Origin: Escherichia phage ev243
Direction: 5' to 3' (one strand)
DNA length: 45,560 nucleotides
Sequence record: NC_049955.1
Part shown: positions 39,301-42,300 of the stretch, in pieces
How the letters are laid out: every line of letters begins with the position of its first letter
How positions within the stretch are numbered: the first letter of the stretch is position 1
Position numbers: made by a program

Positions 39301-42300
39301 CACTGGATATTGAGTTTGGATTCTGGCTGGATTCGGCAGCGAGCGACAAAAATGCTCTGTGTGCTCACTGGCTAACTGAGGCCGACGACGCGCTCAATTC
39401 TGAGTGGGTAAGCCACGGTGCAATCTGGAATAACCCACCGTACAGCAATATCAGGCCGTGGGTGGAAAAAGCCGCTGAGCAGTGCATACAACAGCGACAG
39501 ACGGTAGTTATGCTTGTGCCAGAGGATATGTCAGTCGGATGGTTCAGCAAGGCTCTGGAGAGTGTCGACGAAGTTCGCATTATCACTGATGGACGGATTA
39601 ATTTTATCGAACCATCGACAGGGCTGGAGAAGAAGGGAAACAGCAAAGGCTCCATGCTGCTGATTTGGCGACCGTTCATCAGTCCTCGACGGATGTTTAC
39701 TACCGTATCCAAAGCGGCATTGATGGCGATCGGGCAGGGCGTCAGGAGGGCGGCATGAGGCGACAGCGACGAAGTTTCACCGACATCATCTGCGAAAACT
39801 GCAAATACCTTCCAACGAAACGCTCCAGAAATAAACGCAAGCCAATCCCAAAAGAATCTGACGTAAAAACCTTCAATTACACAGCTCACCTGTGGGATAT
39901 CCGGTGGCTAAGATATCGTGCGAGGAAATGACAATGGATTATTCACAGTTAAGTGATTTTGAAATTAACAGAATGGTAGGAGACATAATTTTTAAAGGCC
40001 TTTGGGCAAGTAAACCGGAAACATCAGGGAATAACACCAACAAATGGTATTACGGAAATGCTGATACAACTTTTGAGCCATTAAATCATTTGCCTGACTA
40101 CTGCAATGATCCGAGCGCTTCATGGCCGATTATTGAGAAATACAGGATTTCTATCTTAGACCAGTTAACTGAATGGTGTGTGGATGCAAAAGGCGTAAGC
40201 CCAATATTTGATACCAGACCTCTCCGCGCCGCCATGATTGTCTTTCTCCTGATGCAGGAGGCCAATAATGCTTAGCCCATCTCAATCCCTTCAATACCTG
40301 AAAGGAAGCATAGAGCGGGCTTCAATGTGCACAGAGTGGATTCTATCTAGGTTTAGCGCATACAGAAGATTGCCGGTAAAGGGCATGCCAAGCAAGTCGA
40401 TGCTGCATATGCAAAAGAATGCGCGCTGGAAGGTATGGCGAGAACACAGGTTATCTGGCTGAAAGAGGGGGTTATTAAGGCGTGAATACCTACAGCATCA
40501 CATTACCTTGGCCTCCGAGCAATAATCGCTATTACCGCCATAATCGCGGACGCACGCACATCAGCGCAGAGGGGCAGGCATACCGCGATAACGTCGCCCG
40601 AATCATTAAAAACGCAATGCTAGATATCGGCCTGGCTATGCCTGTGAAAATCCGCATTGAGTGCCACATGCCGGATCGCCGTCGCCGTGACCTGGATAAT
40701 CTGCAAAAAGCCGCTTTTGACGCACTCACTAAAGCAGGTTTCTGGCTGGATGATGCTCAGGTCGTTGATTACCGCGTTGTGAAGATGCCTGTTACCAAAG
40801 GTGGGAGGCTGGAACTGACCATCACCGAAATGGGGAATGAATGATGTTTGAGTTTAATATGGCAGAACTTCTTCGCCACCGCTGGGGGCGTCTGCGCTTA
40901 TATCGTTTCCCCGGTTCTGTTTTGACCGATTACCGAATACTGAAGAATTACGCCAAAACACTGACAGGAGCAGGAGTATGAAGTCAGAGATAACAATCAA
41001 CTAATACTGTTTTGTTGATTTTTGCTTGTAATTGGCGTTCTGGTCTGAGTTTTGTGGAGTAAGTTGATGCGTGATATTCAGATGGTTCTTGAGCGTTGGG
41101 GAGCGTGGGCGGCTAATAATCATGAAGATGTGACCTGGTCGTCCATTGCCGCCGGTTTTAAGGGATTAATTCCTTCAAAAGTAAAATCTCGCCCGCAATG
41201 TTGTGACGATGACGCGATGATCATTTGCGGGTGCATGGCCCGTCTGAAAAAGAACAACAGCGATTTGCACGATTTATTAGTAGATTATTATGTAGTCGGT
41301 ATGACATTCATGTCACTGGCAGGTAAGCATTGCTGCTCTGATGGTTATATCGGGAAAAGGTTACAAAAGGCTGAGGGCATAATTGAAGGGATGTTAATGG
41401 CATTAGATATCCGGTTAGAGATGGATATCGTTGTTAATAACTCTAATTAATACGCCAATTATTTACTAAAAGTTATTAAAAATGGGGCGTTGAAACGCCC
41501 CCAAAAATAAAGGGTAATATATAACAGAAGGTTTGTATAGTTAGAAGCAAGGTTGTGCTTCTAAAGGAAGTGGCTTGAGGGAGCCACTTATATGTTGGGG
41601 AGGCAAAGCCTCCCACAACATATCTTTTAGTAATCAAATTAGAACTGGTAAACCATACCTACAGCAACGATATCATCGGTAGCAACGCCAGATGCTTTCG
41701 TGAAATCGCTCTTATCAATCAGGTTGATTTTGTAGTCAACAAAAGTGGACATATTTTTGTTGAAGTAATAGGTTGCACCTACATCAACATATTCAACCAG
41801 GTCCTGATCACCCCAAACACCCAAGTCTTTTCCTTTAGAATGCAGGTAAGCAACGGATGGACGCAGGCCGAAGTCGAACTGATATTGTGCAACAGCTTCG
41901 AAGTTTTGTGCTTTGTTGGCAATATGGTTATTACCAAAAACAGTCATGTTCTGGGTTTCAGAATAGGTGGTGGCCAGATAGATGTTGTTCGCATCATATT
42001 TCAGACCAGCTGCCCATACTTCAGCATTTTGACCAGAAGCATTCAGACCGTTGTTACCGTAGATAACCTGATTATTAGTGCGATCAGATTTAGCATAGGT
42101 TGCACCCACGCCGAATCCTTCATACTCATAAGTAGTTGAGAAACCGAAACCATCGCCATTAGCTTCAGTTACTTCATTTCGGTCATTTTTGCCCTGATAC
42201 TGAGCTGCAAAGTTCAGGCCATCAACCAGACCAAAGAAGTCGTTGTTACGATAAGTTGCAACACCTGTGGTGCGACCAGTCATGAATACATCTGTTTGGG

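Follow-up and report, generated by a model that had tools for sequence, protein, structure and literature searches.

What lies between ninX and rusA in Escherichia phage ev243, and how did it come to be there? An initial annotation had seen in this interval the last ~42 codons of a ybcO-like gene, and had proposed that a recombination junction inside ybcO joined a lambda-type nin segment to a DLP12-type rusA-Q segment. The window, which is the whole stretch of 45,560 nucleotides analysed here (NC_049955.1), is the complete genome of a lambda-like phage, running from cos to cos, with Escherichia phage 2G7b as its nearest relative, and the integrase (~26800-28100) is annotated as intD, the DLP12 integrase, in matching E. 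coli loci. Because of this complete genome and its intD-type integrase, the phage is apparently an intact and viable relative of the cryptic prophage DLP12 of K-12. The gene order across the locus is ren, ninB, adenine methyltransferase, ninE, ninX, the interval in question, rusA, ylcG, quuD and an uninterrupted, nmpC/ompC-like porin on the opposite strand (41639-42721, minus strand). The adenine-methyltransferase gene (39234-39747, in the ninB/ninE interval) is variable, being missing from the otherwise identical loci L001, L044, L060 and L062, and the forms with and without it have ~12 nt in common at the joint. The features of the region are as follows.

39755 to 39931, plus strand: ninE, intact (Pfam NinE, E=3.4e-42; NinE family protein in the PGAP annotation of identical loci)
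39934 to 40275, plus strand: ninX (DUF2591), intact (Pfam Phage_P22_NinX, E=7.4e-17; PGAP: NinX)
40268 to ~40341, plus strand: 5' remnant of a P22-type ninF, ~21-24 codons (identity to P22 ninF)
40268 to 40462, plus strand: chimeric 64-aa open reading frame (ORF) of NinF', X and out-of-frame ybcO 3' sequence (ORF search)
~40342 to 40395, plus strand: filler segment X, ~55 bp (88% identical to DNA in Stx1 phage AU6Stx1)
40377 to 40378, no strand: TA reused as a deletion end point, context CCGG-TA-AAGGGCATGCC (junction comparison)
40396 to 40485, plus strand: 3' remnant of ybcO (DUF1364), a pseudogene of 29 codons and stop (nucleotide identity to ybcO alleles)
40465 to 40471, plus strand: putative rusA Shine-Dalgarno GAGGGGG, inside the ybcO remnant (read from the sequence)
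40482 to 40844, plus strand: rusA, intact (Pfam RusA, E=6.4e-23; PGAP: rusA)
40841 to 40981, plus strand: ylcG (YlcG family protein in the PGAP annotation of identical loci)
41067 to 41450, plus strand: quuD-type antiterminator Q (Pfam Phage_antitermQ, E=8.5e-54; PGAP: quuD)

Downstream of the scar, rusA, ylcG and Q are all intact. RusA (PF05866) scored 82.1 bits against a cut-off of 22.8 over residues 9-114, with its GTG start and GAGGGGG present. A scan of the scar revealed no promoter-like or terminator-like site within it.

Translation of 40276-40485 shows in-frame TAG codons at 40348-40350 and 40354-40356, followed by 42 codons open from 40357, and the TGA that ends the ybcO remnant (40483-40485) overlaps the rusA GTG (40482-40484). 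The hand translation of the initial annotation, its GTGA overlap and its stops immediately upstream are all present in the sequence, and it rightly placed an intact ybcO immediately upstream of rusA in K-12 DLP12, where the protein has 96 aa and nearly the same C-terminus. The surviving 3' end of ybcO is likewise real, although it is shorter than the ~42 codons supposed. Alignment to the K-12 region, suggested earlier as the way to locate the breakpoint, was combined with alignment to L123, a second ybcO allele whose right-hand side is identical to the window; it placed the break at 40395/40396 (the slash marks a joint throughout). From 40396 on, that is, from codon 68 of 96, ybcO homology begins abruptly and runs for 90 nt, and these 29 codons and stop match the L123 allele exactly and differ little from K-12 ybcO. 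Since the nucleotide identity is essentially complete from 40396 on, a chance match to ybcO is excluded, as is the absence of any similarity to ybcO, and the remnant is a descendant of ybcO by its identity to bona fide alleles.

The remaining 13 of the 42 open codons, the first ones (RIQKIAGKGHAKQ), belong to X and not to ybcO. We considered whether they could be a divergent ybcO allele and ruled this out; X occurs without ybcO, and with the same in-frame stops, in Stx1 prophages. The Pfam profile YbcO (PF07102) gave the remnant 18.2 bits against a cut-off of 29.9, over profile positions 62-92 only, compared with 144.8 bits over positions 2-92 for K-12 YbcO. The N-terminal two thirds of YbcO is gone, including the conserved cysteines (C13, C21, C54 and C57 in K-12 YbcO), and with its first 67 residues lost YbcO is predicted to be non-functional here. 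PGAP, in RefSeq E. coli, annotates exactly 40396-40485 as a pseudogene, 'DUF1364 domain-containing protein; incomplete; missing N-terminus'.

On the left-hand side, the segment is not lambda-type, as had been thought, but P22-like (ninX-ninF). The sequence 40262-40330, spanning the ninX/ninF overlap, and the first 62 nt of the ninF part within it (to 40330) are ~90% identical to P22. Homology to ninF is limited to the first 62-74 nt of the 64-aa ORF, and the sequence past ERA diverges. Full-length NinF has ~58 aa, and its C-terminal part with the CxxC residues is absent here, so that NinF, too, is predicted to be non-functional.

Behind the ninF stump lies X, which is 88% identical to unannotated DNA of Stx1 phage AU6Stx1; there, too, it follows a ninF stump downstream of ninE, and unrelated sequence comes after it. 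In that locus (L005, 1480-1640), the ninF stump and X come straight after ninE and are followed by a reverse-strand gene. Complete E. coli genomes contain ~586 occurrences of X at ≥90% identity, with the context of the window among the matches listed, and 249 occurrences at 80-90% identity, unannotated under the match as in AU6Stx1. These matches, in Stx1 prophages and complete E. coli genomes, did not reveal a native source of X.

Taken as a whole, the region is very probably a non-coding scar that at least two non-homologous joints have left among the nin genes of this viable, lambda-like relative of DLP12. Homology switches from P22-type to X at ~40341 and from X to DLP12-type at 40395/40396. 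The recombination joint in ybcO that the initial annotation had foreseen stands, but a direct fusion of nin to ybcO does not, since ~55 bp of X lies between them, X is itself joined to the ninF stump, and the joints are at least two and nested. At the first joint, a P22-type ninX-ninF unit would have been broken within ninF, near codon 22-24, and attached to the foreign DNA X; at the second, X would have been joined to ybcO codon 68 within a DLP12-type ybcO-rusA-ylcG-quuD-porin unit. The ninF'/X joint is probably the older of the two because AU6Stx1-type prophages have it too, followed on the right by other sequence, which suggests the order ninF'/X and then X/'ybcO. No extended shared sequence was found at 40395/40396; a 5-nt CGATG nearby, offset from the joint, is all.

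The remaining 90 nt of ybcO hold both the GTG of rusA and its putative ribosome-binding site, GAGGGGG, which lies 10 nt before the GTG. With these signals carried by the remnant, rusA would stay expressible. They are the only function that we assign to the ybcO remnant, and retaining them is the one plausible constraint on the position of the joint.

Two other readings of the region were weighed. The break in ybcO could be one of appearance, produced in a full-length gene by a frameshift or sequencing error, and frameshifted full-length ybcO alleles are indeed known elsewhere (P0017-P0020; L123). The alignments refute this for the present locus, as upstream of 40396 neither they nor Pfam detected ybcO-like DNA in any frame and no full-length gene is recovered by correcting an error. 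Sequencing error is excluded because an identical structure recurs in 566 complete genomes, 84 fetched loci and ~25 phage records, and so in hundreds of assemblies made independently and in isolated phages; the probability left to this reading is negligible. The 64-aa chimera could also be a new functional small protein, or could be kept for translational coupling of ninX to rusA. This ORF, at 40268-40462, had been recorded as a different one overlapping in another frame; its frame is indeed separate, but it is the NinF' fusion itself. It is open in 82/84 loci, its protein start matches NinF, and it is labelled 'protein NinF' in some NCBI records. It begins at an ATG inside the last ninX codons, where the ninX TAG overlaps the start region, and ends 19 nt short of the rusA start, immediately ahead of the putative Shine-Dalgarno, so that it may deliver ribosomes near rusA; ribosomes reading it could be handed on to that gene. 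Against a maintained protein, the ORF has no Pfam match at E≤1 and is missing the NinF CxxC region, all 5 SNPs placed in its frame among the 84 loci change the amino acid (overall divergence is low), and frameshifted (P0002, P0005, P0007) or extended variants circulate. We consider a function of the chimera improbable, and the ORF is best read as accidental read-through of the ninF', X and ybcO pieces.

The recombination scar is common. Its layout was found in 566/5426 complete E. coli genomes, counted at ≥80% coverage of a 671-nt query spanning the scar, and PGAP-annotated matching loci were 99.6-99.9% identical over this query. It also occurs in ~25 phage records and in viable phages such as 2G7b, ev099 and Chlobot (in 2G7b the interval is unannotated), and the 84 fetched loci with the scar comprise 16 alleles. 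Because the layout is widespread, present in viable phages and already called a pseudogene by PGAP, the scar is ordinary lambdoid mosaicism. It carries little weight by itself and shows only that viable DLP12-type phages can do without ybcO and ninF but retain rusA together with the signals for its translation.

One part of the scar is less ordinary. Proteins sharing the tail of the 64-aa ORF have differing N-terminal partners, all joined just before KGMPSKS. The DNA of those loci shows deletion derivatives of the same prophage kind, in which the sequence from 40379 onward is kept to the nucleotide. The TA at 40377-40378 is the end point of at least seven independent deletions with different partners, six on the left and one on the right. 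The left partners are as follows.

L007: lambda P codon 47 (window 37872), joint CAGTTA/AAGGGC
P0011: lambda P codon 33 (window 37829-37830), joint CAGGTA/
L008/L009: 434-type cro codon 61, intact parent confirmed, joint TGGTTA/
L074: window 32634, joint CGTGTA/
L021: window 29520, joint GCCTA/
L011: ea22-side site, joint CTATA/

The right partner is found in L094, where the left side is kept up to 40378 and joined to 40931, with 'ybcO, rusA and most of ylcG removed. No further rightward deletions were found in a scan with a left-hand pattern. The joint of L097 lies 3-7 nt from the reused TA. Further, a perfect 8-bp palindrome, GGCATGCC, is located at 40382-40389, 4 nt to the right of the TA. 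L021 also carries a 7.8-kb tail-gene deletion (window 10519/18362) with GATC microhomology, unlike the TA joints.

Similar joints are spread over the prophages. Comparison of all fetched loci with the window showed a bare TA at 14/18 resolved abutting joints, against ~3% expected of random 2-nt matches (binomial p ~1e-17 for the TA excess, computed on 13/16 joints). Besides 40377-40378, TA joint sites were located at 693, 2484, 27309, 29519, 29823, 30416, 32400, 32633, 33458, 37498, 37829, 37871, 38122, 38202, 39110, 39409, 40205, 40354, 40793 and 40931. Reuse was also seen at 29519 (2x), 37829 (3x), 38122 (2x) and 39409, and the exoD'/'peaD joint of K-12 DLP12 (29824/38122) is among the TA joints. 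An IMG/VR contig (L092, 3195-4545) contains an inverted duplication of window 38117-39410, with joints at the reused 38122 and 39409. Flanks were enriched in GGTA/TACC (9/19 sites versus 14% background, p=6e-4), and the oriented site motif was C-S-G-G-TA-A-n-S-S, with the CCGG-TA/TA-CCGG context favoured. Part of the joint sample was gathered with a pattern anchored at 40379, and therefore the count for the 40377 site is inflated, while the TA preference elsewhere is not. In four complete genomes chosen independently of the 40377 site, 2 or 3 of 4 further joints were TA.

These observations raise the possibility that some sequence-directed activity breaks and rejoins prophage DNA, deleting the segments that lie between two TA dinucleotides, and that it prefers the TA at 40377-40378 as a target; we hold this explanation tentatively, and it more probably fails than holds. 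The different partners of the seven deletions, the excess of bare TA, the reused sites, the additional TA joints in the independently chosen genomes and the flanking motif all argue for it; against it stand the partial collection of the sample with a pattern anchored at the very site and, as set out below, the misfit of simple gyrase models, the lack of a serine recombinase gene in the window and the lack of hairpin enrichment. With comparable reserve, a type II topoisomerase, a serine recombinase such as YbcK or a TA-specific transposase might be responsible, and the scar would then be a hot spot. For gyrase, the published consensus arms GGCGGTAT/ATACCGCC, given as CGGCGGTAT....ATACCGCCG in the supplement of PMC6379681, belong to a 130-bp motif with a 4-bp staggered cut; the GGTA arm resembles CGGCGGTAT, with C here at position -4 versus G in the consensus, and the GC profile of the TA sites is weakly correlated with that of the gyrase consensus (p ~0.03). 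Simple gyrase models do not fit, since the catalytic cut and the joint are 1 nt apart and the arms occur in either orientation. The geometry would suit an enzyme that acts as a dimer and cuts the strands 2 nt apart, for which YbcK-like serine recombinases and TA-specific transposases are examples. No serine recombinase is encoded in the window. RusA cuts 5' of CC, and the frequency of TA/CC at deletion sites makes it a candidate only in the sense of a lead.

Several other sources of the pattern were considered. An ancestral insertion sequence (IS) at the reused TA was rejected: one draft genome has IS100 (IS21 family) there (L093, 4110-4224, at a contig end, with the duplication GTAAA of 40376-40380), no complete E. 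coli genome has it, and IS-mediated deletions should leave an IS, of which none is seen at the joints. Hairpins with the TA in the loop were not enriched at the sites and were likewise rejected. Only a few of the deleted segments had longer inverted repeats at their termini, and the ybcK serine-recombinase cassette was not seen to be sharply bordered by TA. A literature search on TA-specific prophage deletions or gyrase joints found nothing pertinent.

Extended beyond this locus, the directed activity could account for most of the lambda/DLP12-type prophage-inactivating deletions in E. coli as the work of one CCGG-TA/TA-CCGG-directed process, with 40377-40378 as a preferred site and exoD'/'peaD as a product of the same process; this extension is a conjecture that we would sooner doubt than assert. 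If true, prophage decay would be a directed process and not random loss, and the idea can be tested in the laboratory. Compared with the already annotated remnant, the reused TA end point is unexpected, and it is the only part of the scar that deserves follow-up.

The scar itself resembles known systems closely. In K-12 DLP12 (ybcO-rusA, b0549-b0550), the last 90 nt of ybcO, the GTGA overlap, rusA, ylcG, quuD and the porin are 95-100% identical to the window, and the window phage carries a DLP12-type integrase, intD. K-12 DLP12 differs in having the whole 96-codon ybcO after ybcN-ninE, whereas the window is without codons 1-67 and has ninE-ninX-ninF'-X instead. Similarly, Salmonella phage P22 is ~90% identical to the window where ninX ends and over the 62 nt with which ninF begins, and it has the same ATG/stop overlap. 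The ninF of P22, however, runs for 58 codons and is followed by ninG, while that of the window ends after ~22 codons, and ninG, ninY, ninH and ninZ are missing from the window. The DUF1364 pseudogene of PGAP covers exactly the same 90 nt, but neither the ninF stump nor filler X nor the reused TA appears in its annotation. Mosaic module joints in lambdoid phages arise by non-homologous recombination followed by selection. Like them, the scar shows an abrupt gene-internal switch of homology between lineages with the adjacent essential signals kept; there is no essential difference, and the scar is a typical compound example of such joints.
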